Positions 21,689-35,994 of a stretch of 64,000 nt of DNA are shown here, in pieces. Numbering within the stretch: the stretch's first letter is position 1; each line of letters begins with the position of its first letter. The notes under the pieces were generated by a model. The model did no database searches. It saw only the letters and a program-made list of their open reading frames with translations, and was not told the origin of the DNA. The translations under genes and the position numbers were made by a program. The stretch lies in the NCBI GenBank assembly GCA_963827235.1, contig CAWHAE010000012.1, positions 1,216,001 through 1,280,000 of the forward strand. The letters run 5' to 3'. This stretch comes from an uncultured bacterium (GTDB taxonomy: Bacteria > Chloroflexota > UBA5177 > JANWHV01).

Positions 21689-22306
21689 GTGGGCAGGATC
21701 GCGGGCGATGCCGGCGCGGCGACCTCACAGCGGCAGGGCCGGATCGTCGACGGGAGGCCAATCACGGAGGTCTCAGGCACGGGTGCGGATCTACAATTCC
21801 GGGCGGCTGTGCCGGACGACGCCGGCATGATCGCCGCGCTGCACGCCGACAGCTGGCGTCGCACGTACAGGGGTGTCTTCTCCGACGTCTACCTGGATCA
21901 CGAAGCGCCATCCGAGCGCCGCCGCTACTGGCACCGCCATCTGCGGACGAAGCCGGGTGCGCAGCAGCGCGTCCTGGTGGCCCTCGACGGCGGCACCTGT
22001 GCCGGTTTCATCTGTATCGTCCTGGACGCCGAGCCGGCCTGGGGTCCGCTGCTCGACAATCTGCATGTGCGGCAGGACTACCAGAGCCGCGGCATTGGAC
22101 GGCGCCTGGTCGAGGCCGGGCGTCTCTGGGTGCGGTGCCGTGGCCCGCACGACAGGTGGCATCTGTGGGTGGTGGAGAGCAACCAGGCTGCCCGCCGTAT
22201 CTACGAGCATCTTGGTTGGGCACCGGCAGAACGATCCATCCACCATGCACCTGACGGCTCCGAGTTCCCGGCGTGGCGCTACGTACAGGACATCCCGGCA
22301 CAGTAG
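21689..22306 (+). CDS. GNAT family N-acetyltransferase
   Basis: 'IAALHADSWRRTYRG', acetyl-CoA motif LHVRQDYQSRGIGRRL, 'LWVVESNQAARRIYEHLG'. Start uncertain. Confidence 0.85.
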   Translation: MGRIAGDAGAATSQRQGRIVDGRPITEVSGTGADLQFRAAVPDDAGMIAALHADSWRRTYRGVFSDVYLDHEAPSERRRYWHRHLRTKPGAQQRVLVALDGGTCAGFICIVLDAEPAWGPLLDNLHVRQDYQSRGIGRRLVEAGRLWVRCRGPHDRWHLWVVESNQAARRIYEHLGWAPAERSIHHAPDGSEFPAWRYVQDIPAQ

Positions 22307-22484
22307 CGGTGCTTCTCGCCTCGCCGCGATCGCCCGGCACCGGTCAGAGCCCAGAACATCAGCAGGAGCGAACCGAACTCTGAACGTCACCGGAGAATGG
22401 AGATGGCGGTTAGTCCGGCGCTGACCCAGTACCGCCGGTCTCATAGTGCTCTCCCTATGCGGCCGAACGTGTGCCTCGAACTCA

Positions 22485-23762
22485 CTACCAGATCGTCAGA
22501 GAGTCAAGGAGGAGCTGGCGCAGCGTCGTCTCAGTGAATAGGCGCGGCGACAGCTTGGTGACGCGGTGTTGGGGCAAAGTTCCGGCGACGAGCTGGTCCA
22601 CATCCGCCGGTGTGAAGCCGACCGCCTGCAGCCCGTTGGGCATGCCGGTCTGCTGCATCAGTCGCACGATCGCCCCGGCGAGCGCCTCGCCGGCGGCATC
22701 TTCGTCTACCTCGCTGGTGTCGGCGCCCAGCAGGCGTGCCGCATGCAAGTGTCGCTGCGGATTCGCCGCCGCTGTGAAGCGGAACACGGCAGGAGCCGTC
22801 AGGATCACGGACATGCCATGCGGGATGATCGGGTGGTCGGCAGGATAATCTGAGGGCACGAAGTGGCGAGCCAGACCGGAGATGGGGTAGGACATGCCGT
22901 GCGGCAGGTGTACGCCCGCGTTGCCAAAGCCGATGCCGGCGTAGGTCGCCGCCAACAGCATCTGTTCACGCGCCTCGTCGTCCGTGGGATCCGAGATGGT
23001 GCGCACGAGCGAGCGGGCGACCATGGCGATTGCCTGGGTGGACCAGACGTCGCTGATCGGGTTAGCACCCTGATAGCTCGGCCGAAGACCTGGCTGCTCG
23101 GGTGCCTGCCGCGCGGAGAACGGCAGGGCCGTGTAGGATTCGAGGGCGTGGCTGAGCACGTCCAGGCCGCTGCAGGCAGCGACCATCTTCGGCAGTGCGC
23201 GTGTGTTGTCCGGGTCGACGATGCCCAGGGCGGGGCGCAGCGCACGGTGCGCAATGCCGGTCTTCGCATGCAGATCCTGGCAGTCGAAGATCGCCACGCC
23301 GGTCGTCTCGCTGCCGGTCCCCGCCGTGGTAGGGATGGCGATCAGCGGTCGCAAGGGGCCCGGCACCGGACGCGCCTGTCCGATCGGCGCGTTCACGTAG
23401 GTCAGCAAGTCGGCGGGGTAGGTGGCATAGAGGTTGGCCGCTTTGGCGGTATCGATGCTGGAGCCGCCTCCCACGGCTACATACCCATCGAAGCGGCCGG
23501 CGACGGCAAATTCTATCGCTTCGGCGAACGAACGGTCGGTCGGTTCCACGCGCACGGCGTCGAAGAGCACGGCGTCGATTCGGGCGGCGCCGAGGGCATC
23601 CAGCGTGACCGCGACGCTCTCGCTTGCGGCGAGCACGTGATCGGTGACGACCATCACGCGCCGGCCACCCAAGCGCAACATGTCGGCACCCACCTCGCGC
23701 GTGGCGCCGCGGCCGAACTTGATGCTGGAGGTATCCATCGTGAAGACCGTTTCGACAGTCAT
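22485..23762 (-). CDS. Hydroxyacid-oxoacid transhydrogenase (HOT/ADHFE1-like, Fe-ADH family)
   Basis: SSIKFGRGATREVG, VEPTD.SF, GGGSSIDTAKAANLY, YVNAPIG, PTTAGTGSETTG, GLDVLSHALESYTA, RPSYQGANPISD, GNAGVHLPHGMSYPI, PHGMSV, LPQHRVTKLSP. Confidence 0.92.
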   Translation of the reverse strand: MTVETVFTMDTSSIKFGRGATREVGADMLRLGGRRVMVVTDHVLAASESVAVTLDALGAARIDAVLFDAVRVEPTDRSFAEAIEFAVAGRFDGYVAVGGGSSIDTAKAANLYATYPADLLTYVNAPIGQARPVPGPLRPLIAIPTTAGTGSETTGVAIFDCQDLHAKTGIAHRALRPALGIVDPDNTRALPKMVAACSGLDVLSHALESYTALPFSARQAPEQPGLRPSYQGANPISDVWSTQAIAMVARSLVRTISDPTDDEAREQMLLAATYAGIGFGNAGVHLPHGMSYPISGLARHFVPSDYPADHPIIPHGMSVILTAPAVFRFTAAANPQRHLHAARLLGADTSEVDEDAAGEALAGAIVRLMQQTGMPNGLQAVGFTPADVDQLVAGTLPQHRVTKLSPRLFTETTLRQLLLDSLTIW

Positions 23763-23936
23763 TGGTCACCTCGTTGTTGGGTGTAGAGGAGTTTGAACAG
23801 GCTTGAGGCGCATGATACGGCCCGATTGCATAGGTGGTGACATCCAGAACGGCGGGTGCCGAGTGCGCGGGATATCGAGCCACGATGTTGGTTGACGCTC
23901 TATCCTCCTCGACGGTGCGCTATTCGTTGATCTCAT

Positions 23937-23986
23937 CCTATCAGCCTAGCGGATAGCTTGACAGGTTCGGCATAGTGGCGTACAGT
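23937..23986 (+). promoter_or_regulatory. 29-bp operator CCTATCA-N15-TGACAGG overlapping the -35 of promoter TTGACA-N17-TACAGT
   Basis: CCTATCAGCCTAGCGGATAGCTTGACAGG (23937-23965). Same architecture at 24976 and a partial copy at 31291. Confidence 0.75.
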
Positions 23987-24207
23987 ATCGCGTATTGCGG
24001 CAGCCCATGCGATGTCACGCCGGCAGACCTCGCAGACCGTTCCTCCATGTCAGTCGTCCTGCGAGGCGCGGGTAAGGCTGTGTTCGCGTCGCTTGGTGCA
24101 CGGCAACGTGACGGAACTGTGCCGCCGACCTCATTTGGTGCGATACGGTGCCCGACGTTGCATGTCATGAGGACCTGCCTCGCACCCACTGCCAAGGGTG
24201 GGAATAG

Positions 24208-24957
24208 ATGGAGATTGAGACACCCGACATCGTGCGCCTGCCGCGGGAGCTTGTCGAGGGCCTGGCGAGCATTGGGAGCGCGACGGCCACAAGCGAGTTG
24301 AGTCGTCTGGGTATCCGCTCTGCGCATCTGCAGGGCCTCACGTCCTGGACGCCCGGCGTGGCCATGGCGGGCTCCGCACTGACTCTGCAGTTCATGCCCA
24401 AACGTGAGGACGTCTACACGGCCGCGGAATATGCCGATCCGGAGCGGCAGCTGCACCGGCACGTGCTCTACCGCGCCCAGCCCGGTGATGTCGTGGTGGT
24501 CGATGCCCGCGGAGATCTGGGGAGCGGCGTGTTCGGCGACATGATGTTGACCTACTTCAAGGGGCGGGGGGGCCGTGGCGTCGTCGTAGATGGCTGCATC
24601 CGCGACTATCCCAGGGTGAAGCGCCTCGGACTCGGCCTCTGGCTGCGCGGCGTCACACCCAACTTCCATACACAGACCGCCATCTTTCCCTACGCGGTGA
24701 ACGTGCCGATTGCCTGCGGCGGTGTGCTGGTGCAGCCGGGTGACGTGATCGTCGCAGATGACGATGGTGCGGTCGTCGTCCCGGCCTCGCTGGCCTCTGC
24801 GCTGCTCGAGGCGGCCAGCCAGCACGCCGAATGGGAGGATTTTGCCCGACTGCGGCTCTCGGAGGGCGGCGATCTCCGGCGCTACTACCCGCTGTCGGAG
24901 GAGGCGCGGACCGAATACCTGGCCTGGCGGGCCTCGCAGGGCCCGGACAAGCCCTGA
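24208..24957 (+). CDS. RraA-like / HMG-type class II pyruvate aldolase family protein
   Basis: 'MAGSALTLQFMPKRED', 'PGDVVVVDARG...GVFGDMM', 'VVDGCIRD', 'NVPIACGGVLVQPGDVIVADDDGAVVVP'. Confidence 0.88.
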   Translation: MEIETPDIVRLPRELVEGLASIGSATATSELSRLGIRSAHLQGLTSWTPGVAMAGSALTLQFMPKREDVYTAAEYADPERQLHRHVLYRAQPGDVVVVDARGDLGSGVFGDMMLTYFKGRGGRGVVVDGCIRDYPRVKRLGLGLWLRGVTPNFHTQTAIFPYAVNVPIACGGVLVQPGDVIVADDDGAVVVPASLASALLEAASQHAEWEDFARLRLSEGGDLRRYYPLSEEARTEYLAWRASQGPDKP

Positions 24958-24975
24958 ATAGGACCGCTATACCGA

Positions 24976-25026
24976 CCTATCATACTATCATATAGCTTGA
25001 CAGGATGACCCCCACAGTGCCATAAT
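24976..25026 (+). promoter_or_regulatory. 29-bp operator plus promoter TTGACA-N18-CATAAT for the ABC operon
   Basis: CCTATCATACTATCATATAGCTTGACAGG (24976-25004). CATAAT at 25021-25026. Confidence 0.75.
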
Positions 25027-25089
25027 TGTTGAATCGCGCGGGGACGCAAACGGATCGTTGGATCCGGCAGGGTTTTGGAGGAGGTCGAC

Positions 25090-26469
25090 ATGGCCAGAGA
25101 AGGGTCACGGTCGCGCAGAGAGTTCTTGCTAGACACGGCACGAGTGGGAGCCGGTGTCGCCGCGGGCGCCGGGATGCTTGGCACAGTTGCGAGGGTGCAG
25201 GCCGCACGGCCGAGTGCCGGCGCCGTCACCATCACCTATCTGGACTATCAAAAGCTCCGCGCCGAGTGGGTCGCGCGCTGGATCCCCAAGTTCGAAGCCA
25301 TGACCGCGGCAGCCGGCAACCCGATCAAGGTGAATCACCAGGTCGGCCCAACCCCCGACGTGGACTTCCAGACCAAGATCACGGTCGAATACGCCGCCAA
25401 CAACGGACCGGACGTGAGCTGCTACGGCTCGAGTTGGCTGCTGCCCTTTGTCTCCGCCGGTTACCTGCAGGATCTCACGCCCTACGTGAGCAAGTGGTCC
25501 GACTGGAGTAAGTACTATCCTATCTCCCTCAAACCGGTCACGGTCGGGGGCAAAGTCTACGCCGTGCCTCAGGAAGCATCCCTGGAATTCCTCTTCTACC
25601 ACAAGGATATTCTGACCAAGGCCGGCATCTCTACCGCGCAGCCTACCAGCTGGGCCGATCTGCTGGACCGCGGTCGCGAGATCAAGGCCAAGACCGGCAA
25701 ATACGCCATGCTGTTCGATGCCGGCATCCAGTGGGGCGGCGGCGTGTGGCAGGAGGCCTTCGGTCCTCTGATGCTGGGCACGAAGAGCCCGATCTACGAC
25801 GCGGCATCCTCCAAGTGGGTTGTGCGCAGCCAGGGGCTGCTGCAAACCTTCCAGTTCTACGAGTCGCTCTACACCGAGCAGTTGATGCCGATCCAGCCGC
25901 TGCTGAATCCCTCTCCATGGGTGATCCCAAAGTATAAGATGTTCCCCGCGGGACAACTGGTGATCAGCGTTGGCGGCAGTTGGTCGTGGCAATTTGACTG
26001 GGGGGCGCAGGGCGCCGGTCCTATCGCCAACGAGCTCGCCGTCCTGGGCACATGGGATTTCCCCACGCAGGATGGATCCAGCAAGCCCTATGTCTGGACC
26101 GCCGATGGCTATGCCTACACTATTTCGGCCAACAGTCAGCACCCGCAGGAGGCGTTCGAGTTCATCAAGTTCCTGGCGTCGCCCGGCCCTTCGGCTGACG
26201 AGCTCTATTCGATCGGCGCGGTGGCGCCGCGCAAGGACCTGCGCAACACCGCTCCGTATGACAAGCTGCCCAAGATCGTGAGCACCGAAAGCCAGTTGAC
26301 CACCGGCAAGTTCTTCCTGAATTACAACGGCATCGACAAATGGGAGACCTATATCGCCGCGGCGACTGAGTCCATCATCACCGGCAAGGCGACCGCGCAG
26401 CAGGCACTCGACCAGTTCGCCGCCGCGTGCACGAAGGGGATGGGCTCCAGCAGCGTCACCCAGGAGTAG
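25090..26469 (+). CDS. Extracellular solute-binding protein (CUT1) with Tat signal
   Basis: SRREFL twin-arginine motif with no lipobox Cys. 'GYLQDLT', 'GKVYAVP..LFYHKDIL', 'PTSWADL', 'SQHPQEAFEFIKFL'. GGAGG RBS. Confidence 0.9.
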   Translation: MAREGSRSRREFLLDTARVGAGVAAGAGMLGTVARVQAARPSAGAVTITYLDYQKLRAEWVARWIPKFEAMTAAAGNPIKVNHQVGPTPDVDFQTKITVEYAANNGPDVSCYGSSWLLPFVSAGYLQDLTPYVSKWSDWSKYYPISLKPVTVGGKVYAVPQEASLEFLFYHKDILTKAGISTAQPTSWADLLDRGREIKAKTGKYAMLFDAGIQWGGGVWQEAFGPLMLGTKSPIYDAASSKWVVRSQGLLQTFQFYESLYTEQLMPIQPLLNPSPWVIPKYKMFPAGQLVISVGGSWSWQFDWGAQGAGPIANELAVLGTWDFPTQDGSSKPYVWTADGYAYTISANSQHPQEAFEFIKFLASPGPSADELYSIGAVAPRKDLRNTAPYDKLPKIVSTESQLTTGKFFLNYNGIDKWETYIAAATESIITGKATAQQALDQFAAACTKGMGSSSVTQE

Positions 26470-26486
26470 CGCACCGGATTGCGGCT

Positions 26487-26526
26487 CGTGGGGATTGGGG
26501 CGTCGGTCGGCGCCCCAATCCCCACG
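26487..26526 (+). terminator. 16-bp perfect hairpin after the SBP gene (intercistronic stabiliser or attenuator)
   Basis: CGTGGGGATTGGGGCG-N8-CGCCCCAATCCCCACG. No U-tract. Confidence 0.55.
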
Positions 26527-26679
26527 TAAATCAGCAGGCGGATCCTGGTGCCGGTGCGCAACTGCGGCCCGCCACTAATGGCCTCGCCGGCACCGCGCCA
26601 TGCGTGTGCCGGCCGCGCAACGATCACATGCAAAGCCATCCCGGGCATGGGCCGTGAAGCGGATCTGCATGGAGGCTGG

Positions 26680-27567
26680 ATGTTCTTCCGACGGCGTGAA
26701 CGGGTTATCCTGCTCCTGTTCCTGATCCCGGCGCTCGTGCTGCTCGTCGGCTTTCTGCTTGTCCCTGCGGTCTGGGCCGTCTACCTCAGCTTTACCGACC
26801 GCGCGCTGACCGGACCACAAGCCCGCCACCCGGACGTCATCGGGCTGGCTAACTATGCCAACCTCTTTCAGGACTCCAGCTTCTACCAGTCGCTCTGGCT
26901 CACGCTGATCTTCGTTTTCCTCTCGGCGATCGTCGGCCAGTTCGTCGTGGGCCTGCTCGCGGCACTCGTGTTGAACCGCAAGGGCGTACGCGGCGGGGCC
27001 ATCTTCTCCGCCGCGATTCTCATGCCCCTGATCGTGCCGGAGACGATCGCCGCCTACGCCTGGGGCAGCATGCTGGCATCCGGCACCTATGGCGTGGCAA
27101 ATAAGCTGGTCGGGTTGGTCGGTGTCTCGCCGGTCGACTGGCTGCAATCGCAGCCCATGGCCTCGATCATCGTCATGAATATCTGGCGTGGCATCGCCTT
27201 TGCCATGATCATCTTTCAGGCCGCTCTGCAGGGCATTCAACCCGAGATCTTCGAAGCCGCAGACATGGACGGCGCCGGTACGTGGAGTCGCCTGTTCCAC
27301 ATCACGCTGCCGCTGCTCCGCCACGCCATCCTGCTCTACATGCTGCTCACGACGATCTTCACTTTCGGCATCTTCGGCCTAGTCTACATCCTGACCGCCG
27401 GAGGGCCCGGCACTGCGACGCAGATTCTAGGTATCTACATCTACCAGACCTCCTTCCGCTTCTTCGAGCTGGGCTATGGCAGCGCGGCCGCCGTGGTCAC
27501 GCTCCTTGTCGCTCTCTCGCTGGGTCTGGTCTATATCCGCGTGCTGCGGCCGGAGGGAGTCTCATGA
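26680..27567 (+). CDS. Carbohydrate ABC transporter permease (MalF-like)
   Basis: 'FLIPALVLL', 'IGLANY', EAA motif IFEAADMDGA, 'LTAGGPG'. GGAGG RBS. Confidence 0.92.
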   Translation: MFFRRRERVILLLFLIPALVLLVGFLLVPAVWAVYLSFTDRALTGPQARHPDVIGLANYANLFQDSSFYQSLWLTLIFVFLSAIVGQFVVGLLAALVLNRKGVRGGAIFSAAILMPLIVPETIAAYAWGSMLASGTYGVANKLVGLVGVSPVDWLQSQPMASIIVMNIWRGIAFAMIIFQAALQGIQPEIFEAADMDGAGTWSRLFHITLPLLRHAILLYMLLTTIFTFGIFGLVYILTAGGPGTATQILGIYIYQTSFRFFELGYGSAAAVVTLLVALSLGLVYIRVLRPEGVS

Positions 27568-28415
27568 TCCAGGCTCGACGACCGGCAAGGCGAAGCTCCA
27601 GGCAGCGGCTGGCCTCTATCGCTACCTATGCGTTCCTGATCCTGCTGGCCCTGTTCTGCTTGGTACCCTTTGCCTGGCTCTTCGAGGCTGCGTTCGATGC
27701 AAAGGCATCGTTGTACCTCCAGTTGCCGTCGCGCCTGACGCTGGACAACTTCGGACGAGCATTCAACGATTCCGGTGCGCTCACCCTGCTGCAGAATAGC
27801 CTGATCATGGCTTTGGGAGCCGTCGTCGTGGTCGTCTTCTGCGCATCGCTGGCTGGCTATACCCTGTCGCGACTGAAGTTCGGTTTCAAGCCGGTCTTGA
27901 TGTACGGAATCCTTCTGGCACAGCTCATTCCGGTCACGGCAACCATCGTGCCCATCTACACGATCTTCATCGACCTCCATCTGACTGACACGTACCGGGG
28001 CATGATCCTGATTCTGGCCACCTACCAACTTCCCTTGGCGATGTGGATCATGAAGAGCTTCTTCGACGCAGTGCCCACGGAGATCGAGGAAGCGGCCTGG
28101 ACCGACGGCGCCGGCCGCCTCCGCACCATCTATTCGATCATCGTGCCCATGGCGCGGCCCGGGGTCTCCGCGGCGGCCTTGTTCGCCTTTATCGGCGCCT
28201 GGGGTGAGTTCACGCTGCCGCTGATCCTCCTCTCCTCGCAGGACAAACTGCCGCTCTCGCTCGGCATATACCGAGCCTATCAAGCGTATTACCTCATCGA
28301 TTACGGGCAGCTCACCGCGATGTCATTGCTGTACCTGGCGCCAAGCCTGCTCTTCTATATCATCACGCGCCGGTATCTGACGCGTGTCACGGTAGTGGGA
28401 GCGACCATTGGCTAG
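27564..28415 (+). CDS. Carbohydrate ABC transporter permease (MalG-like)
   Basis: ATGA overlap with the upstream stop. EAA motif EIEEAAWTDGA, 'AWGEFTLP'. Confidence 0.92.
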   Translation: MIQARRPARRSSRQRLASIATYAFLILLALFCLVPFAWLFEAAFDAKASLYLQLPSRLTLDNFGRAFNDSGALTLLQNSLIMALGAVVVVVFCASLAGYTLSRLKFGFKPVLMYGILLAQLIPVTATIVPIYTIFIDLHLTDTYRGMILILATYQLPLAMWIMKSFFDAVPTEIEEAAWTDGAGRLRTIYSIIVPMARPGVSAAALFAFIGAWGEFTLPLILLSSQDKLPLSLGIYRAYQAYYLIDYGQLTAMSLLYLAPSLLFYIITRRYLTRVTVVGATIG

Positions 28416-28439
28416 CGCTCGAGCGAAAAGCATGGTTCT

Positions 28440-29456
28440 ATGAGGAAGTTCAGCGTCCTGATCGCGGGCGCCGGCCAGATGGGCCGGGGCTGGGGCCGGC
28501 TGCTGCGCGACTGTGAGGATACCGAGATCGTGGCCTGGGTTGATACGCTGCCCGGGGCAGCCGCGCGCGCGGTCGAGGAGCTTGGGCTGCGGAACGTGGT
28601 AACCGGTCAGGATCTCGAGATCGCCATCAGCAGCGCCAGGCCCGATTTCGTCGTGGACGTCTCGTCGCCGGAGGCGCACCACGACGTCACGTTGCTGGCG
28701 CTTGCCAAGAAGGTGCCTGTGCTGGGCGAGAAGCCGATGGCCTCCACCATGGCGCAGGCGCGAGCGATGGTGGCAGCCGCGGAGGCCACGGACACTCTCT
28801 ATATGGTCAGCCAGAACAGGCGATTCGACCCGAATCTGCACGCACTGCGCCGGCTTATTGCCCAGCACACCGGTCCCGTGGGCGTGCTCAACGCCGACTT
28901 CTATCTGGGCGAGCACCTCGGCGGCTTCCGCCGCGAGATGCCGCATCCGCTACTGCTCGACATGGGCATTCACAGCTTTGACGCGGCTCGCTTCCTCACC
29001 GGTGCCGACGCGTTGGCGGTCACCTGCACGGAGTTCAACCCGGCCTGGAGCTGGTACAGCGGCAATGCCTGCGCCACGGCCGTCTTCGAGCTCACCAATG
29101 GCGCCATATTCACCTATCGCGGCAGTCGCTGCACTGATGGCTTCCACACGACGTGGGATGCAGAGTGGCGAGCTGTAGGGCCACATGGGACGGCGTGCTG
29201 GGACGGGCATACGGCGCCGGCAGCAGAGATCGTGGCCGAGCCGACCGTGCCCATCGCTACCTTCAGGAAAGTTCAGGGCACGCCGGATACCACGATGGTC
29301 GCGGGCATCGCCGGCACGTTGCGCGCGTTCCTGCAAGCCCTGGAATCCGGCGCGACACCACCGTGCGAATGCCACGACAATATCAAGAGCCTGGCCATGG
29401 TGCACGCCGCAATTGAGTCGGCAGCGACCGGCCGGCGGGTCGCTGTCCCGGTCTAG
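28440..29456 (+). CDS. Gfo/Idh/MocA family oxidoreductase (ThuB-like)
   Basis: GAGQMG, 'VLGEKPMA', 'SQNRRF', 'LLDMGIHSFD'. Confidence 0.9.
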   Translation: MRKFSVLIAGAGQMGRGWGRLLRDCEDTEIVAWVDTLPGAAARAVEELGLRNVVTGQDLEIAISSARPDFVVDVSSPEAHHDVTLLALAKKVPVLGEKPMASTMAQARAMVAAAEATDTLYMVSQNRRFDPNLHALRRLIAQHTGPVGVLNADFYLGEHLGGFRREMPHPLLLDMGIHSFDAARFLTGADALAVTCTEFNPAWSWYSGNACATAVFELTNGAIFTYRGSRCTDGFHTTWDAEWRAVGPHGTACWDGHTAPAAEIVAEPTVPIATFRKVQGTPDTTMVAGIAGTLRAFLQALESGATPPCECHDNIKSLAMVHAAIESAATGRRVAVPV

Positions 29457-29583
29457 CAGGCGGCCGCGTCGAGGAGGGCCGTAGGGCTGGCCGGTTGCGT
29501 TGGGTCCATCGCCGCGTGGTAGCGAAATCCTGGTGCGAAACGACTGTTGTAGGGGCAGGTGTCCCTGCGGAATGCGCTGAAGA

Positions 29584-30345
29584 ATGGAGATGGCGGTGGC
29601 AAGCAACAGCCTACACGTAACGGTTTGGAACGAGCATGTGCACGAGCGAGAAGACGCGCTTGTTCGGGCCGTGTATCCCGACGGCATCCACAATACTGTG
29701 GCAAGTGCCTTGCGCAGCCTCCTCGGTGCGGCTGTCAACGTCACGACAGCCACTCTGGAGCAGCCCGAGCAAGGCTTGAGCGAAGCGACGCTGGCCGCAA
29801 CAGACGTGCTGCTGTGGTGGGGACACGTCGCGCACCGCCGCGTGGCGGATGAGGCAGTCGACCGCGTGCTGCGCCGCGTGCATGACGGCATGGGATTCAT
29901 CGCGCTGCACTCGGCACATGAGTCCAAACCATTCATGCGGCTGATGGGCCGAAGCTGCTCGCTGCGCTGGCGTGAGGCAGACGACCGCGAGCTTGTCTGG
30001 CTCGTCAATCCGGCCCACCCCATCGCAGCCGGCGTAGCGCCCGTGCTGGTCATTCCGCGCCAGGAGATGTACGGCGAGTACTTCGATATCCCGCAGCCCG
30101 ACGAGCTGGTCTTCATCAGCTCGTTTAGTGGCGGCGAAGTCTTCCGCAGTGGCTGCACCTTTACGCGCGGCCTGGGCAAGATCTTCTACTTCAGTCCCGG
30201 TCACGAGACCTATCCCGTGTATCACGACGCGGGCGTGCAGCGTATTCTGGCTAACGCCGTTATGTGGGCGCGGAGAGAGACACGGCTCCCGTACTCGACT
30301 GAGAAAAGCGCCCACTCGCCGCTCGGATGGTTCGAGCGACCCTAG
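29584..30345 (+). CDS. thuA: ThuA (trehalose utilisation) domain protein
   Basis: VTVWNE..HE, YPDGIH, TDVLLWWGH.AH, GMGFIALHSAH.SKPF, EMYGEYFDIP.PDEL, GGEVFRSG, GKIFYFSPGHETYP. Confidence 0.9.
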   Translation: MEMAVASNSLHVTVWNEHVHEREDALVRAVYPDGIHNTVASALRSLLGAAVNVTTATLEQPEQGLSEATLAATDVLLWWGHVAHRRVADEAVDRVLRRVHDGMGFIALHSAHESKPFMRLMGRSCSLRWREADDRELVWLVNPAHPIAAGVAPVLVIPRQEMYGEYFDIPQPDELVFISSFSGGEVFRSGCTFTRGLGKIFYFSPGHETYPVYHDAGVQRILANAVMWARRETRLPYSTEKSAHSPLGWFERP

Positions 30346-30463
30346 ACCGGCCCTGTCCCGCCGTGTTCCTCGCGCGCGTGACTTCGCGCGGCAAAGGACG
30401 TCAGCATAAGTATGGACGGCGATGATGCGGCCGGCTACTGCCACGAGTGACCCGGGGGAGCAC

Positions 30464-31225
30464 ATGGTGCCGGAGACCGATGACAAGGGTTCGAGCGTGC
30501 TCGTAACCGGGGCAGGCAGTGGGATCGGTCGCGCCATCGCCCTCGGCTTCGCACGGGCCCGGGCCGCAGTGCTGGCAGCGGACATCGACATGCAAGCGTT
30601 GCTCATGCTGCAGAAGGAAGCACGGCGCGACAGCCTCGTACTCACGACACAGGTAGCCGACATGCGCAGTGAGCCTGAGGTACGGGGCCTGGTCGCCGCG
30701 GCCGCACAGCAGGTACCGCTCGGGGTGGTTGTCCACTGCGCGGGCATCACCGTGCGAAGATCTCTGACGGAGACGAGCGAGGATGAGTATCGTGCCGTGC
30801 TCGAGACGAACCTGACCGGTACGTTTTACTGTCTCCGGGCCGCGGCGCTACAGATGCAGCAACAGGGCCGGGGTGGCAGTATCGTCGTGATCACTTCGAT
30901 CAATGCGCAGTGGCCGCTCGCCACACAGGCAGTCTATACGGCTACCAAGGCGGCCATCGAATCCCTGACCAAGTCGCTGGCCGTGGAGATGGCTCGGCAC
31001 GGCGTCCGTGTCAATGCAGTGGCGCCGGGAGCCATCGACACGCCAATGAACACTGGCGTTCTTGGTCAGAGCCAGCGAGAGCTGCTCGATCGTCGCATTC
31101 CACTCGGCCGGATCGGCAGGGCGCAAGACATGGTTGGTGTCGTGCGGTTTCTCGCCTCGAGCGAGGCAGCCTACATTACCGGTGCCACCGTGGTGGTTGA
31201 CGGAGGGATGATGATCAGCCGCTAG
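30464..31225 (+). CDS. Classical SDR NAD(P)-dependent oxidoreductase
   Basis: TGAGSGIG, 'HCAG', YxxxK (YTATK), 'GVRVNAVAPG', 'YITG..VVDGG'. Confidence 0.92.
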   Translation: MVPETDDKGSSVLVTGAGSGIGRAIALGFARARAAVLAADIDMQALLMLQKEARRDSLVLTTQVADMRSEPEVRGLVAAAAQQVPLGVVVHCAGITVRRSLTETSEDEYRAVLETNLTGTFYCLRAAALQMQQQGRGGSIVVITSINAQWPLATQAVYTATKAAIESLTKSLAVEMARHGVRVNAVAPGAIDTPMNTGVLGQSQRELLDRRIPLGRIGRAQDMVGVVRFLASSEAAYITGATVVVDGGMMISR

Positions 31226-31290
31226 CCGGTTAGGATGTTCGGCGCTTGAGTCTGTCCGGCATGGCCGCACTGACCGCTCCGCTAGGTGAA

Positions 31291-31311
31291 CCTATCTGAT
31301 AGCTCGACAGG
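31291..31311 (+). promoter_or_regulatory. Third copy of the operator, upstream of the FadR/GntR gene (autoregulation)
   Basis: CCTATCTGATAGCTCGACAGG: perfect core palindrome CTATC-T-GATAG plus right arm CT-CGACAGG. Confidence 0.65.
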
Positions 31312-31457
31312 TTGTTAGCTGATATGCTCGATGTGTTCAATGTTGAGAAGACGAGTACGGCCCCGCGGGGACGTGGGCTGGCGGAGCAGCGAGCGCCGGC
31401 TCGCATCGCCCCGAGCGTGCCGCACCCAACGTGACCGGGCTTTGGAAAGAGGTGGAT

Positions 31458-32174
31458 ATGCTCCCACGGCTGCGGCGCGAGACCCTGGCGGAACGCGCTG
31501 AAGACGCATTAATGGAGTACATTCAGCGGCAGGATCTCAAGCCGGGAGCGCTTCTCCCGCCGGAAGCGACCCTCACGGCCCAGCTTGGTGTGAGCCGCGC
31601 CGTGGTACGAGAGGCGCTCAAATCCTTGCAGGGTCGCGGTACGCTTGAGATCGTCAACGGCAAGGGGGCCGTCGTGCTGCCGAGCGACCCCCGCGTGTTG
31701 CGTCTGTACTTTTCCCGAGAGGTTCAGATGCGGCATGAGGCCGTCGTGGAGTTGATGGAGACTCGCCGGGGCCTCGAGGCGGAATGTGCGCAGCTGGCGG
31801 CCTCCCGCCGGACTGCTGCCGAACTCGAGGGAATGGAGGAGACGCTTGCCGCGATGCGTGCGCGACTGCACGATCCGGATTCGTATGCCGAGCTTGACGT
31901 CGCGCTGCACCTGTTGATTTCCGCTGCAAGCCATAACACGATGCTGTCACATCTGGTCGAGTCGCTCCGCGCCGCCCTTAAGGACAGCATCCGCGAGGGG
32001 CTACGCCTGCGTCGCACCGACACTCAGCTGGAAACGATGCAGGACAGCCACGCGCGCATAGTAGCCGCGATCAGGCGCGCCGAGTCTGAGGAGGCTGGGC
32101 GGTTGATGGCCCTGCATATAGACCGCGCCATTGCCACGATGAACGCCTCGCTCGCCCAGGCGTCGACCGCATAA
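31458..32174 (+). CDS. FadR/GntR family regulator (FCD domain)
   Basis: 'LKPGALLPPEATLTAQLGVSRAVVREALKSL...GKGA'. FCD 'LMETRRGLE', 'DVALH...ASHN', 'H..IVAAI...MALH'. Confidence 0.93.
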   Translation: MLPRLRRETLAERAEDALMEYIQRQDLKPGALLPPEATLTAQLGVSRAVVREALKSLQGRGTLEIVNGKGAVVLPSDPRVLRLYFSREVQMRHEAVVELMETRRGLEAECAQLAASRRTAAELEGMEETLAAMRARLHDPDSYAELDVALHLLISAASHNTMLSHLVESLRAALKDSIREGLRLRRTDTQLETMQDSHARIVAAIRRAESEEAGRLMALHIDRAIATMNASLAQASTA

Positions 32175-32272
32175 GGCCGGCGCAGAGCGTTGCCGGTTCG
32201 CATACCGTACGCTTTCCCGAGTACATGACCGTTCCACGTCGTGTGTCCCGGGTAGAGAAGGGGAAAGGCAGC

Positions 32273-33280
32273 ATGGTCCACTTTGCGGAATACCTGCGCC
32301 CGACACGGGCCCCATTCTGGACGCTGCTGCGACAGCTGGGCGTCGAGCACGTGGTGAGCAGCCTCGACCGCGAACTGCCTTCGGGCGGCCATCGCGCCAT
32401 CGATCTGCCCTGGGAAGAAGGGGCCCTGCGCCAGCTGGTCCACCGCTATGAACGGGCCGGCTTGCGCGTGGCCGTGATCGAAGATGGCCCCCCTCTCGAC
32501 TGCGCGCGCCTTGGGCTGCCCGGCGCCGACGATGAGATCGAGCAGGTCTGCACCCTGGTGCGTAGCATGGGCGCCGTGGGGATTCCCGTGCTGTGCTACA
32601 ACTGGATGTCCGTCATCCCCTGGCTGCGCACGTCGACCGCCCTGCCGGGGCGGGGAAACGCCCTTGTCACCGGCTTTGACGCCGCCGATCTCGCCGGCCT
32701 GCCACCCACCTGGGCCGGTGAGGTTCCTGAAGCGCAGTTGTGGGACACCCTGGCCACGTTTCTCCGCAGGGTGGTGCCGGTGGCCGAACGGGCGGGTGTG
32801 CGGCTAGCTCTCCATCCGGATGACCCGCCGTATTCGCCGATCCGAGGCGTGGCCCGCATACTGACGAGCCTGGATGCCTTCCAGCGGGTGCTCGATCTGG
32901 TGGATAGTCCGGCCAATGCCCTGACGTTCTGCCAGGGCAACTTCTCGCTGCTGACCGACGATGTGCCGGGAGCTCTTCGCCAGTTCGGTTGCCAAGGCCG
33001 GGTCGCCTTCGGACACTTTCGCGACGTGCGGGGCACGCCGGAGCGCTTCGTCGAGACGTTTCATGATGATGGGCAGACCGACATGTATGCCTGTATGCGG
33101 GCGTGGTTGGACATCGGCTTCGACGGGGTGCTTCGTCCAGACCATGTGCCGACCCTGGAAGGGGAAGCGAACGACCAACCGGGCTACGCCTATCTCGGAC
33201 GCCTGCATGCACTGGGCTACATGACCGGACTCAGGGAAGCAGCCCTGGCCGAACGGACGTTGCTCAATAAACAGGTCTGA
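32273..33280 (+). CDS. uxuA: Mannonate dehydratase (UxuA family)
   Basis: 'GIPVLCYNWM..WLRT', 'AERAGVRLALHPDDPP', 'TFCQG', 'HFRDVRG..F.ETFHDDG', 'RPDHVP'. Confidence 0.88.
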   Translation: MVHFAEYLRPTRAPFWTLLRQLGVEHVVSSLDRELPSGGHRAIDLPWEEGALRQLVHRYERAGLRVAVIEDGPPLDCARLGLPGADDEIEQVCTLVRSMGAVGIPVLCYNWMSVIPWLRTSTALPGRGNALVTGFDAADLAGLPPTWAGEVPEAQLWDTLATFLRRVVPVAERAGVRLALHPDDPPYSPIRGVARILTSLDAFQRVLDLVDSPANALTFCQGNFSLLTDDVPGALRQFGCQGRVAFGHFRDVRGTPERFVETFHDDGQTDMYACMRAWLDIGFDGVLRPDHVPTLEGEANDQPGYAYLGRLHALGYMTGLREAALAERTLLNKQV

Positions 33281-33411
33281 GACGCACATGAGAGCGATGG
33301 CGAAGGTTTTCTTCGGTTGTGCTGGGGCGGCCGCGCGCAGCGCTCTCGTCGGTTGGTACGCTCGTCATCCGGGGAGAAGTTGCCGTTGGCACCGACACGC
33401 AGTGATTCCCG

Positions 33412-33888
33412 CTAGTAGCTCATCTCTCCTGGTGTCAGCAGCCGGCAAATGGCGCCGTCCACTGCCAACGGCTCGGGCCCACCGTGTGCGGCGTAGTCGT
33501 CCGCATAGTGGTGGATCAGGAAACCCAGGACATGGTGCATAAGCCACAGCTCGAGGGGTTGATTTGGCGTCCAGCCCAGCCGTGCGTAGCCATCGCCGAA
33601 GATGTAGGCATTGGTCATGCTCCAGTAGGCGCGCACCAGTTGCTGCCATCGCCACGTGGCGGAATCGGGACACTCGGCCAGGTCCTCGTGCGTGAAGAAC
33701 GAGAGGGCTTCGGGCATAGAGATACGCAAGGCGTCGGCTTCGCCGCGACCTCCGCCAACCAGGATGTCACCGCGTTTGCCCCGGAAGCTGTCGTCGCCTC
33801 GGGTATCCTCATCCAGCCGGTAGATCGCAACGCTCCTGCTAGCGTCATTCCCGAACACGAACGGGAAGCGGCTAGGACAGGTCACCAT
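33412..33888 (-). CDS. Hypothetical protein (~158 aa)
   Basis: Protein-like composition (aromatic-rich, 'GDILVGGGRGEADALRIS', 'AYWSMTNAYIFGDGYARLGW'). No family recognised. Confidence 0.55.
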   Translation of the reverse strand: MVTCPSRFPFVFGNDASRSVAIYRLDEDTRGDDSFRGKRGDILVGGGRGEADALRISMPEALSFFTHEDLAECPDSATWRWQQLVRAYWSMTNAYIFGDGYARLGWTPNQPLELWLMHHVLGFLIHHYADDYAAHGGPEPLAVDGAICRLLTPGEMSY

Positions 33889-34330
33889 GCCGAGGCAGGT
33901 ATGTCGATAGCTGTCAACTTCCGACACGCAACAACCTCCGCTGGCTGTGGACGCCTGACTCTGTTGACCGCGCTCCACTCACGCATCGAGTCAATTGTAG
34001 GTCCACGTCGTCCGTGGGTCTATCACGACGGTAACAAACGGTTGCTCTAGCCGCCGGGCTGACGGGAGCATCGCGCCCGACTCACTCGCCGCTAGGTCAA
34101 GCGCGCTGGGACGCGGATGTGTAGTCTCGCGGCGTACGGAATTCCGCCCGCGAACGTGCGCTCCAGTATCTTCGCGCGCTCAAGGATGGGCAGCAGCCAC
34201 TGTACTGGTGTAAGCATCTCGCCAACCATCCCTTAAGGGTCTACCTGGATCGACCCGGTGGGCGTTTCTGGCTGACGCGACACGCCGGAGCGGGTCCCGG
34301 CATCGGCTGGCTCCCGCCGCTTCCCGCGGA

Positions 34331-34603
34331 TCAGTGCCACCCTGCCCAAGGCCACGGCCAGGACGTTCTCGTCAGCGCTAGGAGGACGGCATGATTCGTT
34401 GTGCTCAGGGCGACCAGCACAGCGTCCACGAACCCGACGAACACGTCAGGCTCGATGTCGTACTCGTCGCAGCCCAGGTCCGCGATGCCAGTCGTCTGGC
34501 CAGCGAGCGCTTCAAGCGCTAGCGCCTGCCCGCAAAAGAGCACGCCGACCCGCGAGGCCGGATTCCAGATCTCCCGATTGCCGACCTGAAAGTACACGCT
34601 CAT
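34331..34603 (-). CDS. DUF6086-like small protein, probably frameshifted near its 3' end
   Basis: 'MSVYFQVGNREIWNPASRVGVLF...TTGI...DEYDIEPDVF..FV...TNHAVL' resembles DUF6086 from recall. Alternative frame after ~34371 reads ENVLAVALG. Confidence 0.6.
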   Translation of the reverse strand: MSVYFQVGNREIWNPASRVGVLFCGQALALEALAGQTTGIADLGCDEYDIEPDVFVGFVDAVLVALSTTNHAVLLALTRTSWPWPWAGWH

Positions 34604-35572: not shown

Positions 35573-35994
35573 GCAGCACGTCCTTCCGCACCTGCAAGGT
35601 GCCTCGCGTTGCCGTTCACACCGTTCCCGACTACTGGATTCCCGCCCGGCGCCGTAACGCCGGGCTACCGGGTCGCCGTCCGCGAGGCAACCATGGGTCG
35701 TATTCTTCCTGTAAACCCCGGGCTCGCCCTTGATACTACCGCAGGATACAACAGGGTCACCCGGCCTGTGCCGGTTCGCGCGGCAGAAGCGTGGCCCAAC
35801 GTGCCGGCATCCTGCTTCGAGACAGTGCGCAAGGCGCCGCCGCCAATCAGGAATGGAGATCGCAGGCACCGCATTCTTCGGCGTTCGGAGCGGGTCCAGA
35901 TCCGCGGCATCCTCCCCTGTATTCGCATGCGCGACCGGCGTCGTGAGAGGCCGCGCGACCGATCGCCGTACCCGATCCCGCGCTGCCGGCGGTG

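Follow-up and report, generated by a model that had tools for sequence, protein, structure and literature searches.

A putative GntR/FCD-controlled regulon for sugar-acid catabolism, built from separately conserved modules, in an uncultured Chloroflexota bacterium

The locus and its genes

The DNA analysed here, referred to as the window, is a stretch of 64,000 nt from an uncultured bacterium of the Chloroflexota, and the genes of interest lie at 22485-33280, hereafter the unit. Pfam and NCBIfam profile searches agree with the gene content given in a preliminary description of this DNA (Table 1) and bear out its picture of a CUT1 importer with neither a glycoside hydrolase nor a sugar kinase inside the unit, where no ABC ATPase was detected either. 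A lactonase is also absent from the unit. The flanks hold GH125, two GH38, GH2 and GH36 genes together with a second UxuA-like gene (Pfam).

Table 1. Genes, putative operator sites and predicted promoters; site scores are from the foreign-site matrix described in the text
Feature	Position	Strand	Basis or remark
Fe-ADH (HOT subfamily)	22485-23762	-	Pfam Fe-ADH and ADH_Fe_C
Putative operator site 1	23937-23965	+	overlaps P1 -35 box; 35.9 bits
Predicted promoter P1	TTGACA 23958-23963, TACAGT 23981-23986	+	17-nt spacer; aimed at RraA-like gene
RraA-like	24208-24957	+	Pfam RraA-like, 119.9 bits; PRK08245 clade
Putative operator site 2	24976-25004	+	overlaps P2 -35 box; 41.4 bits, best site of the genome
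Predicted promoter P2	TTGACA 24997-25002, CATAAT 25021-25026	+	18-nt spacer; 11/12 matches
SBP_bac_1 substrate-binding protein	25090-26469	+	Pfam
Two BPD_transp_1 permeases	26548-27567, 27564-28415	+	Pfam BPD_transp_1 twice
GFO_IDH_MocA oxidoreductase (Gfo)	28440-29456	+	Pfam
ThuA	29584-30345	+	Pfam ThuA, 109.6 bits
SDR	30422-31225	+	Pfam adh_short_C2, 191.8 bits
Putative operator site 3	31283-31311 (core 31291-31311)	+	upstream of GntR-UxuA; putatively autoregulatory
GntR+FCD regulator	31431-32174	+	Pfam GntR and FCD
UxuA-family dehydratase, short form	32225-33280	+	Pfam UxuA, 260.5 bits
NAD-epimerase-family (extended SDR) protein	34625-35869	-	Pfam Epimerase; beyond the unit

The substrate-binding protein has a Tat signal with SRREFL in its N-terminus, and its relatives in the PDB are all distant, none above 60 bits; the best NCBIfam matches of the permeases, UgpA, GlcT and GlcU, are all below their cut-offs. 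In NCBIfam the Gfo protein comes closest to IolG, with 94 bits where the cut-off is 355. It aligns with the S. meliloti thuB region over 196 of its 338 residues at 30% identity, and so is not an orthologue of ThuB, the label it had been given. The ThuA assignment stands, with 58% identity over 237 aa to the pSymB ThuA of S. meliloti and a PDB match to 1t0b of 305.6 bits; by its sequence it is a true ThuA, predicted to serve a sugar or glycoside dehydrogenase as its accessory or second subunit. For the SDR no NCBIfam model reaches its cut-off; the highest-ranking ones are FabG, the L-rhamnose 1-dehydrogenase model and the glucose 1-dehydrogenase subfamily. Its top PDB matches comprise generic SDRs as well as gluconate 5-dehydrogenase and glucose 1-dehydrogenase, which makes it a candidate for either a sugar 1-dehydrogenase or a reductase of a keto-sugar or keto-sugar acid.

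The UxuA-like protein passes the NCBIfam subfamily PRK03906 (206.3 against a cut-off of 191), fails the uxuA equivalog TIGR00695 (142.7 against 199.55) and matches S. suis UxuA in the PDB at 162 bits, and would be a sugar-acid dehydratase resembling mannonate dehydratase. The RraA-like protein, single-copy in the genome, passes PRK08245 (286.4 against 208) and fails the RraA equivalog (54.7 against 136). Its closest solved relative is RraAS2 (5x15, 243 bits), which was reportedly presented as an RNase inhibitor, and PGAP labels the clade 'ribonuclease activity regulator RraA'. It also matches the aldolase 3noj at 100.6 bits, the Asp and Arg-Asp positions of which are conserved in the alignment, and its probable role is that of a class II pyruvate aldolase with a 2-keto-3-deoxy sugar acid as substrate.

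The Fe-ADH is below the cut-off of every NCBIfam equivalog, with relatives of 73-78% identity named HOT (hydroxyacid-oxoacid transhydrogenase) by JGI. Alignment with solved Fe-ADHs shows two extra stretches in it, of 18 and 13 residues, which correspond to the pair of HOT-specific inserts in PMC5125639, so its placement in the HOT subfamily is upheld. The gene is monocistronic and divergent from that of the RraA-like protein.

A shared palindrome and the genes it faces

A palindromic element of about 29 nt, the top direct-repeat family of the region, occurs in three copies with the consensus CTRTCA-N2-CTATC-N-GATAG-N-TTGACAG (roughly 27-29 bp). The 13-mer ATAGCTYGACAGG is matched three times in the window against 0.19 expected, with at least three matches in none of 100 shuffles, and within the genome of 7,984,468 bases the three window sites are its sole exact matches; places with one mismatch number 16 others, compared with 10 for a reversed control pattern. 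The regulator is of the FadR/FCD type, with an alternative ATG start at 31458, and of its 15 metagenomic homologues six (54-63% identity) carry the same palindrome some 100 nt ahead of the gene. The patterns used did not find it in the other nine loci, among them L274 (55%) and L276 (51%), whose upstream flanks are complete. Because it precedes six orthologous GntR/FCD genes, the palindrome is, with little doubt, the operator of the local regulator, to which the preliminary description had also assigned it.

A weight matrix built solely from the six foreign sites and scanned over the 8-Mb genome ranks site 2 first and site 1 second, the best unrelated place reaching 19.6 bits. Site 3, at 21.4 bits on the minus strand and 17.4 bits on the plus strand, does not outdo the best background site with this matrix, and its placement agrees with that of the sites upstream of the orthologous regulators. 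Within 22300-33600 just two sigma-70-like promoters were called, one on site 1 and the other on site 2; since two is also the shuffle expectation (2.0), it is their position and not their count that is telling. P2 serves the ABC-Gfo-ThuA-SDR operon, and site 3 offers TCGACA as a -35-like box with no canonical -10 at 16-18 nt.

It had been claimed that one operator ties together three promoters, the first shared by HOT and RraA. This holds for the RraA-like gene, the ABC operon and GntR-UxuA, whose common regulation is predicted from the sites as highly likely, but not for HOT, as site 1, 175 nt ahead of the HOT start codon, is oriented toward the RraA-like gene, and promoter candidates on the HOT side are weak (8/12 matches). 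Membership of HOT in the regulon is doubtful; the gene is most likely a bystander.

No regulator orthologue (E <= 1e-30) was found in four genomes of the same genus, which are 83-92% complete, and the best match among 400 genomes of the phylum has 49% identity. As the gene set is found nowhere else and the regulator is without close orthologues in these genomes, the case for regulon membership comes from the three sites of a single genome. On metagenome contigs the orthologous regulators lead operons with an MBL-fold hydrolase, SDRs, an enolase-superfamily dehydratase and a substrate-binding protein, and they adjoin an epimerase-family gene and a ManD-subgroup enolase.

Conservation of the parts

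The complete cluster is conserved nowhere; it is pieced together, mosaic-like, from modules that are each conserved on their own. The check set in advance was whether HOT, RraA, ThuA and UxuA genes are conserved together, and they are not, with other cluster genes beside HOT orthologues in none of 80 loci, RraA in none of 80 ThuA loci and UxuA in one. The proposal that HOT processes a hydroxyacid of the pathway has adjacency as its sole basis. What does recur widely is a dehydratase, UxuA-like or of the enolase type, with an RraA-like gene, often accompanied by CUT1 ABC and GntR genes.

Among 58 loci with RraA-like orthologues (56-75% identity), an enolase-superfamily dehydratase is found in 14 and a UxuA-like gene in four, with both in one locus, making 17 in total; the remaining 41 have no dehydratase within 6 kb, and about nine loci have CUT1 ABC genes. 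In all eight annotated alphaproteobacterial plasmid records examined the RraA-like gene (61-67% identical) adjoins a dehydratase gene or lies within about 150 nt of one, on the same strand and amid ABC transporter genes; the dehydratase is of the enolase type in six and annotated 'mannonate dehydratase' in two, and a GntR regulator is present in five. Two of these records contain minimal operons of only a CUT1 ABC system, a UxuA-like and an RraA-like gene, and given such operons the CUT1 importer need not mean an oligosaccharide, as had been supposed. In genome G021 UxuA-like and RraA-like genes adjoin an MGH1-like GH63 gene.

Seen from 80 UxuA-like loci, an RraA-family gene is within 4 kb in 14, and an epimerase-family gene is found in 24, an enolase dehydratase in 17 and an SMP-30 lactonase in six. 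SDR genes are near in 14 loci, in several directly adjacent, and ThuA, Gfo, GntR and HOT are found in none. From the side of ThuA, a Gfo homologue adjoins the gene in 37 of 80 loci, and in many loci the ThuA and Gfo reading frames overlap. In the same-genus genome G004, GH130, LacI and GH38 genes neighbour a CUT1 ABC system that is followed by a Gfo orthologue (72%).

The epimerase-family gene at 34625-35869 belongs to a GH38 alpha-mannosidase operon, and its product is 55% identical over 304 aa to that of the L274 gene directly upstream of a ManD-subgroup enolase. Homologues occur in 27 of 80 UxuA-like loci and five of 15 regulator loci, and in none of the 80 HOT or 80 ThuA loci. The family includes uronate dehydrogenases, and this member is a candidate sugar dehydrogenase feeding the pathway.

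A possible pathway and its rivals

The reading preferred here, which we hold at about an even chance, is a locally assembled catabolic regulon in which one GntR/FCD repressor governs an oxidative sugar-to-aldonate-to-pyruvate pathway. A repressor dimer would bind the palindrome, and as the right arm of the palindrome is the promoter -35 box, it would block transcription of three units, namely RraA-like, SBP-permease-permease-Gfo-ThuA-SDR, and the regulator gene with UxuA; the likely inducer would be one of the carboxylate intermediates, the aldonate itself or the 2-keto-3-deoxy acid made from it. The CUT1 system would import a sugar, small glycoside or aldonate, which Gfo-ThuA and/or the SDR may oxidise, with the UxuA-family enzyme dehydrating the aldonate to a 2-keto-3-deoxy acid (KDG in the case of D-mannose) and the RraA-like enzyme splitting this, without phosphorylation, into pyruvate and an aldehyde. 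The recurrent dehydratase and RraA-like module supports such a kinase-free route, and this element of the pathway first proposed is thereby retained; on these neighbourhoods a dehydratase step followed by an RraA-like aldolase step is reasonably likely.

The pathway first proposed began with oxidation of a glycoside at C3 by Gfo-ThuA and non-hydrolytic cleavage, the aldonate then passing through UxuA and the RraA-like enzyme and HOT moving hydride from a hydroxy-acid intermediate to 2-oxoglutarate. In favour of this, ThuA is close to its S. meliloti counterpart, for which genetics points to a part in forming 3-keto-disaccharides (PMC8121099), and the fusions of ThuA among 120 longer homologues listed (AP_endonuc_2 76, aldose 1-epimerase or mutarotase 23, Gfo 10) fit C1-C3 ring chemistry. 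A Microbacterium module of SBP-permease-permease-Gfo-ThuA followed by a GH36 gene links the module to glycosides, UxuA shares the TIM-barrel superfamily of AP_endonuc_2 (a 45-bit Pfam match), and membership of the HOT subfamily is supported. However, Gfo is not ThuB, the unit lacks the AP_endonuc_2-type enzyme that usually serves as 3-keto-glycoside lyase, and neither the UxuA-like nor the HOT orthologues keep the company this route calls for, with site 1 driving the plus strand away from HOT. The flanking GH38, GH125 and GH2 mannosidases are hydrolytic, so non-hydrolytic cleavage is unnecessary to explain the locus, and the route as a whole seems unlikely.

It is also improbable that the locus serves a classical hexuronate or aldonate route, with the SDR as a UxuB-like fructuronate or keto-aldonate reductase, KDG from UxuA passing to a KDG kinase and KDPG aldolases elsewhere, and a separate role for the RraA-like protein, such as oxaloacetate decarboxylase or RNase regulator. 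SDR genes do accompany UxuA-like genes, locus L274 has a PfkB kinase, and two KDPG/KHG aldolase genes (PF01081) on contig C16 mean that KDG could exit by a phosphorylative route; the authors of PMC10963439 send KDG into the semi-phosphorylative ED pathway in Natronoglomus and call its RraA gene a putative oxaloacetate decarboxylase, and the PGAP label points the same way. Against this, Pfam searches of the unit and flanks found no UxaC isomerase or kinase, the RraA-like protein falls below the RraA equivalog cut-off and its single-copy gene has its own operator copy, and its tight pairing with dehydratases in ABC operons, the minimal three-component ones included, is hard to square with a separate role. 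An aldarate or uronate-type route, in which dehydrogenases make a diacid and the RraA-like enzyme converts 2-keto-3-deoxy-aldarate to 2-oxoglutarate semialdehyde, is very unlikely. Epimerase-family genes accompany UxuA-like, RraA-like and regulator genes, enolase dehydratases are frequent partners, and the RraA-like protein FlDet is a 2-keto-3-deoxy-aldarate dehydratase/decarboxylase and not an aldolase, although its identity to the RraAS2 clade is just 26% (PMC8563752). The known UxuA-family substrates are aldonates and not aldarates, the aldolase residues of 3noj are conserved, and Pfam detected no 2-oxoglutarate-semialdehyde dehydrogenase in the unit.

For the kinase-free aldonate pathway the leading candidate source would be D-mannose freed by the flanking GH38, GH125 and GH2 enzymes, with the GH38-linked epimerase-family dehydrogenase as a further feeder, and D-mannose or a mannoside is put forward as substrate only tentatively. 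The likeness of the epimerase-family gene to its L274 counterpart next to the ManD-subgroup enolase, and the GH genes in the G004 and G021 neighbourhoods, speak for mannose. Homologues of mannoside-type GH genes are scarce (four of 80 UxuA-like and two of 58 RraA-like loci), so the module has no general link to mannose. A comparable system is nonetheless described in PMC10963439, where Natronoglomus mannan clusters combine mannanases, GH2, a sugar-dehydrogenase-like GH109-type gene, two manD genes and epimerase-family and RraA-family genes, and for which the authors predict the conversion of mannose to mannonate and then to KDG.

Gene content and the shared operator

All of the genes named in the preliminary description were confirmed by Pfam and NCBIfam scans (table below), and within the unit that they form neither a glycoside hydrolase nor a sugar kinase nor an ABC ATPase turned up in the same scans. 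The CUT1 importer has its SBP and both permeases, the only ABC_tran gene of the window (770-1705) belonging to another system, and no Rfam family reached its gathering score anywhere in the window. A look-up of public sequencing runs returned none for the locus. The source genome (7.98 Mb, 65% GC, 95.9% complete, 9% contamination) carries one copy each of the RraA-like and ThuA genes, a 60% paralogue of the Gfo gene and UxuA paralogues at 41% and 38%; the nearest relatives of the window proteins are mostly from Chloroflexota (Caldilineaceae, Anaerolineae, Thermomicrobiales).

Features of the unit and their positions in the window
Feature	Position	Strand	Identified by
Fe-ADH (HOT)	22485-23762	-	Pfam, NCBIfam
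Operator site 1	23937-23965		
RraA-like protein	24208-24957	+	Pfam, NCBIfam
Operator site 2	24976-25004		
Tat-signal SBP_bac_1 protein and two permeases	25090-28415	+	Pfam, NCBIfam
Gfo/Idh/MocA oxidoreductase	28440-29456	+	Pfam, NCBIfam
ThuA	29584-30345	+	Pfam, NCBIfam
SDR	30422-31225	+	Pfam, NCBIfam
Operator site 3	31283-31311		
GntR+FCD regulator	31431-32174	+	Pfam, NCBIfam
UxuA-family protein	32225-33280	+	Pfam, NCBIfam

That one operator element is common to three promoter regions, as had been proposed, was borne out, with three sites confirmed and tied to the local regulator. The 29-nt element is the top repeat family of the region, its 13-nt core has three matches in the window against 0.19 expected, a number reached in none of 100 shuffles, and perfect copies of the core occur genome-wide only at sites 1, 2 and 3. 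Sites 1 and 2 coincide with the sole two sigma-70-like promoters called in 22300-33600, both on the + strand (P1 at site 1, TTGACA-17-TACAGT; P2 at site 2, TTGACA-18-CATAAT), and therefore the right arm of the operator is the -35 box.

The regulator has an N-terminal GntR winged helix (Pfam, 57.8 bits) and a C-terminal FCD domain (80 bits), a domain for which a carboxylate effector is expected. A metagenome scan with this protein returned 15 homologous loci at 44-63% identity, and in six of them (L271, L272, L273, L275, L277 and L285, with regulators 54-63% identical to that of the window) the regulator gene is preceded, at a distance of about 100 nt, by the palindrome CT(A/G)TCA-N2-CTATCA(G/T)ATAG-N-TTGACA within a TTGACA...TATACAAT promoter; by pattern search the palindrome is absent from the other nine, including L274 and L276 with full flanks. 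A weight matrix was built solely from the six foreign sites and scored over the whole source genome, where site 2 (41.4 bits) came first and site 1 (35.9 bits) second among all positions. Site 3, which has no canonical -10, scored 21.4 read on the - strand and 17.4 on the + strand against 19.6 for the best unrelated place, and because these scores are so close it rests mainly on its position and on the perfect inner palindrome CTATCTGATAG. Judged from this pattern of sites the operator is real, and the local GntR/FCD regulator is the protein to which it is predicted to belong. A possible fourth operator at C3:14189, on another contig (19.6 bits), has a methyltransferase and unnamed genes as its neighbours and was treated as a chance match. 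The idea of a riboswitch in the leader of the RraA-like gene was also dropped, the 223 nt downstream of P1 folding no better than shuffles (z = 0.13).

The relatives of the regulator give some indication of what it controls. At L271, L273, L274 and L275 it is the first gene of an operon that also encodes an MBL-fold hydrolase, SDRs, an enolase-superfamily dehydratase, NIPSNAP and an SBP, with an epimerase-family gene and a ManD-subgroup enolase (408 bits against a cut-off of 550) upstream of that operon, thus the regulator family would appear to govern oxidative sugar or sugar-acid catabolism. The regulator itself has no match at E <= 1e-30 in four genomes of the same genus (83-92% complete), and across 400 genomes of the phylum nothing comes closer than a 49% homologue in the related genome G144, where neither other unit genes nor the motif were found. 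An IS240-type transposase (L275:6580-7413) and GGDEF/EAL genes (L275:1278-6454) lie just upstream of the epimerase-ManD pair of L275, a neighbourhood consistent with mobility of these catabolic modules.

The RraA-like protein and its dehydratase partners

The most useful lead from the analysis is that the clade of the RraA-like protein (PRK08245) may be the aldolase partner of sugar-acid dehydratases. The protein has the RraA-like fold (PF03737, 119.9 bits) and passes the PRK08245 subfamily model (286.4 against a cut-off of 208), and it fails the equivalogs for RraA (PRK09372, 54.7 against 136, covering only residues 82-195) and for LigK/PcmE (TIGR02798, 112.7 against 304.5; PRK09262, 120 against 179). 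Its closest solved relative is RraAS2 (5x15, 243 bits), which is reportedly an RNase inhibitor; the HMG/CHA aldolase structure 3noj matches at 100.6 bits. When aligned to 3noj the window protein has D, R and D at positions 102, 123 and 124, and Asp102, Arg123 and Asp124 of 3noj are said to have been identified by Wang et al. 2010 as metal-binding, enolate-stabilising residues. The fold is common to the window protein, the 3noj type and other RraA-fold proteins, the context in the window being sugar-acid rather than aromatic catabolism. FlDet, another RraA-like protein, is a keto-deoxy-aldarate dehydratase/decarboxylase (PMC8563752), and in the main text of open-access papers no characterisation of the PRK08245 clade as an aldolase was found.

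The UxuA-like protein (PF03786, 260.5 bits) passes the subfamily model PRK03906 (206.3 against 191) and fails the uxuA equivalog TIGR00695 (142.7 against 199.55); it is a short form, of 351 aa against 394 in the model. Another short UxuA-like gene, with 41% identity to this one, lies at 46250-47248 (+) and ends an operon of an SBP, two permeases and a GH42-like gene, an operon that holds no dehydrogenase.

Pairing of the two kinds of protein recurs elsewhere. Among 58 loci with an RraA-like gene of at least 56% identity an enolase-superfamily dehydratase is found in 14, a UxuA-like gene in 4, either of the two in 17 and CUT1 ABC genes in about 9, part of these counts coming from an ORF caller prone to antisense frames and the later ones being GC3-filtered. 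From the other side, an RraA-family gene lies within 4 kb in 14 of 80 UxuA-like loci, where the other neighbours are epimerase-family genes (24/80), enolase dehydratases (17/80), SMP-30 lactonases (6/80) and GH4 (5/80). The pairing is also present in eight plasmid records, picked among the 30 best matches for carrying annotation, in all of which an RraA-like gene (61-67%) sits beside or within about 150 nt of a same-strand dehydratase gene, among ABC transporter genes. The dehydratase is of the enolase type in six and a 'mannonate dehydratase' in two, and five of the records have a GntR regulator, two an IclR and one a LacI. In these same records (L376-L383) PGAP names the PRK08245 clade 'ribonuclease activity regulator RraA' despite the adjacent dehydratase, which is likely a systematic misnaming of the clade.

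In the operons of Agrobacterium and Martelella a UxuA-like gene (46.5%) and an RraA-like gene (63%) are accompanied by a CUT1 ABC system only, and since nothing else is present this suggests, by analogy, that the imported substrate can be the acid sugar itself and that CUT1 need not mean an oligosaccharide. Such minimal operons speak against the necessity of reading the CUT1 importer of the window as an oligosaccharide system, as was done in the preliminary description. Its dehydratase-aldolase route, on the other hand, is probably right, going by the recurrent pairing of dehydratase and RraA-like protein. If the aldolase reading is true, a large and widely distributed clade now labelled as an RNase regulator would be a sugar-acid aldolase, partnering both UxuA-like and enolase-type dehydratases in ABC-linked operons.

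HOT, ThuA and the mosaic make-up of the unit

The Fe-ADH (PF00465, 143.6 bits; PF25137, 111.3 bits) has an 18-residue insertion (query 213-230) and a 13-residue one (about 300-312), each of which is a gap in both of the solved methanol dehydrogenases aligned. PMC5125639 describes two HOT-specific insertions of about 19 and 13 residues, and because the inserts match these and JGI names relatives of the protein HOT, membership of the HOT subfamily (cd08190, ADHFE1-like) is supported at the level of sequence. The Fe-ADH fold and both subfamily-specific insertions are shared with animal ADHFE1; what differs is that the window gene stands alone, highly conserved in a variable neighbourhood. In the papers covered, no characterised bacterial member of HOT was found.

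Whether HOT takes part in the pathway, as was originally proposed, is a separate matter. Among 80 loci of HOT orthologues (61-75%) there is not one homologue of RraA, ThuA, Gfo, GntR or UxuA, the sole matches being generic SDRs in 29 and permeases in 6 and 2, and apart from lineage synteny in Caldilineaceae nothing in the surroundings of the orthologues is conserved. Site 1 is oriented like every other site, driving the + strand toward the RraA-like gene, and lies 175 nt from the HOT start codon; a relaxed scan for a HOT promoter gave only candidates with 8 of 12 matches, one overlapping the operator and one 100 nt from it. With the operator directed away, only weak promoter candidates of its own and no co-location in 80 loci, HOT is unlikely to belong to the regulon, and its membership of the pathway is unsupported.

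The loci of the other genes tell a similar story, and co-conservation of the whole set, a test named beforehand, fails for HOT, ThuA, the UxuA-like and RraA-like loci and the regulator. ThuA loci have Gfo in 37 of 80, UxuA and GntR in one each and RraA in none; UxuA-like loci have an RraA of the same clade in 3 of 80 and none of ThuA, Gfo, GntR or HOT; and the 58 RraA-like loci include, besides the four UxuA-like genes, ThuA within 10 kb in three, GntR homologues in three, one 33% Fe-ADH of another kind and no HOT. In three loci (L049, L050 and L056) the RraA-like and ThuA genes are 7-9 kb apart, in gene calls that are noisy at 59% GC. A DNA search of 40 relatives recovered only pieces of Gfo and ThuA, together with HOT in a single genome and, in the related genome G021, UxuA and RraA side by side. 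As the whole set is nowhere co-conserved in the loci searched, the locus is a mosaic that exists only here within the genomes and metagenomes covered. It would illustrate that the copying of a single operator-promoter cassette can bring separately mobile modules into one regulon.

One of these modules is Gfo-ThuA, the two genes adjoining in many loci, often with overlapping reading frames. The earlier labels ThuB and ThuA fared unequally. ThuA stands, with 58.2% identity over 237 aa to the pSymB ThuA of S. meliloti (Pfam ThuA, 109.6 bits), whereas the label ThuB does not, Gfo being 30.1% identical over 196 of 338 residues (E 9e-8) to the thuB region, a comparison made with an unannotated frame of 275 aa and covering part of the protein. 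Gfo has its best NCBIfam match in IolG (94 bits, cut-off 355), and none of its PDB relatives exceeds 60 bits. The module would therefore work like ThuAB, with a dehydrogenase of another subfamily. Among the 120 listed of 203 longer ThuA homologues, a hand count found 76 fused to AP_endonuc_2 (xylose-isomerase-like TIM barrels, the most frequent partner), 23 to aldose 1-epimerases, 10 to Gfo and one to URO-D (P0151, a natural fusion), with ThuA only in 7 and other domains in 3. There are hints that ThuA may act in ring-opening or keto-sugar chemistry and not as a passive subunit, and the invariant His, Glu, Asp and Cys columns of the ThuA alignment A2 suggest a putative active site. In the main text of open-access papers only genetic background was found on the biochemistry of ThuA. 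If ThuA does pair with Gfo dehydrogenases other than ThuB, the question of its role is widened. The case for oxidative glycoside cleavage, which formed part of the original interpretation, is weak.

Mannose as a candidate substrate and comparison with known systems

The unit lies in a carbohydrate island. Upstream are an AraR-like regulator, a CUT1 ABC system, GH125, GH38, an MFS transporter, an epimerase-family gene, GH2 and a URO-D-like gene; downstream are an operon of an AraR-like regulator, GH38 and an epimerase-family gene, then a CUT1 ABC system, GH42-like, the second UxuA-like gene, GH2 and GH36. The two regulators, at 6313-7557 (+) and 38797-40113 (-), have a GntR-type winged helix and a LacI-type sugar-binding domain, chimeras which we take to be AraR-like, and both adjoin CUT1 ABC systems and mannosidase genes. 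URO-D/MtaA-like proteins occur in sugar clusters at 20062-21450 (+) and 61851-62867 (-) of the window and at G000:C3:16203-17492 elsewhere in the source genome. The stretch from UxuA to the epimerase-family gene, where the GH38 operon ends, contains a 188-aa ORF without a Pfam match (33412-33978, -) and a DUF6086 gene (34331-34603, -).

D-mannose is the leading candidate substrate, put forward tentatively. The epimerase-family gene linked to GH38 (34625-35869) shares 55% identity with the gene directly upstream of the ManD-subgroup enolase at L274, and its homologues are found in 27 of 80 UxuA-like loci and 5 of 15 regulator loci, and in none of 80 HOT or 80 ThuA loci. In G004, a genome of the same genus, the last gene of a CUT1 operon is a 72% Gfo orthologue, with GH130, LacI and GH38 genes next to that operon, and the UxuA-RraA pair of G021 lies beside an MGH1-like GH63 gene. 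Against mannose, only 4 of 80 UxuA-like loci and 2 of 58 RraA-like loci have mannoside-type GH homologues nearby. Since the genome has two KDPG/KHG aldolase genes elsewhere, KDG, the 2-keto-3-deoxy acid expected from D-mannonate, might also take a phosphorylative exit.

The most far-reaching reading is a widespread, kinase-free aldonate pathway in which ABC import would be followed by a UxuA-like or enolase dehydratase and then by the RraA-like aldolase. Here one FCD repressor would bring this module together with a ThuA-Gfo two-subunit dehydrogenase and an SDR, and the combination would make a bacterial oxidative D-mannose pathway fed by the neighbouring alpha-mannosidases. The whole proposal, with the PRK08245 clade as the missing aldolase of the kinase-free route and here part of a complete pathway of this kind, is somewhat doubtful. 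The underlying observation is confirmed, and the first interpretation is right on one regulator and probably on the dehydratase-aldolase route. The repressor/operator pair, if the proposal holds, might be used to sense the pathway acid. The KDG aldolase of Thermoplasma is presumably of the DHDPS type. Conversion of mannose to mannonate and KDG has been predicted for Thermoplasma (PMC6901390) and for mannan-degrading natronoarchaea (PMC10963439); as of 2019 no mannose-specific oxidative pathway had been discovered according to PMC6901390, and no natural bacterial one was found in the main text of open-access papers. If true, the proposal would give a bacterial form of a route so far only predicted in archaea (PMC6901390, PMC10963439).

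The AldT-ManD-KDG aldolase system of Thermoplasma acidophilum (PMC6901390) and Natronoglomus mannanivorans (PMC10963439) share with the window a dehydrogenase, a mannonate dehydratase and KDG cleavage. In the mannan clusters of Natronoglomus, mannoside hydrolases are accompanied by a Gfo-fold (GH109-like) gene, an epimerase-family gene, two manD and an RraA-family gene (PMC10963439), and 'mannonate dehydratases' encoded on haloarchaeal plasmids have 47-48% identity to the UxuA-like protein of the window. These systems differ in being archaeal and in cleaving KDG by KDG aldolase or sending it to a semi-phosphorylative ED pathway, with no step assigned to the RraA gene, no ThuA and no defined operator.

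The thuEFGKAB operon of S. meliloti, for uptake of trehalose, maltitol and sucrose isomers and formation of 3-keto-disaccharides, likewise has a CUT1 ABC operon followed by a Gfo-family gene and the closely related ThuA. In the window, by contrast, the Gfo partner is distant (30% over 196 aa) and precedes ThuA, the thuK ATPase is missing, a different type of regulator is present and the genes are coupled to those of a dehydratase and a candidate aldolase.

Also close are the alphaproteobacterial plasmid operons of Rhizobium, Sinorhizobium, Microvirga, Martelella, Agrobacterium and Bosea, which have the same RraA-like clade beside a dehydratase and ABC genes, often with FadR/GntR. Known from annotation (regulators GntR/IclR) and with no characterisation found in the literature, they have a UxuA-like dehydratase in Agrobacterium and Martelella and the enolase type elsewhere. 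Unlike the window unit they include an ABC ATPase and lack ThuA, Gfo and HOT, whereas in the window three promoters share the genes, the one for the candidate aldolase lying upstream and the one for the dehydratase following the regulator gene.
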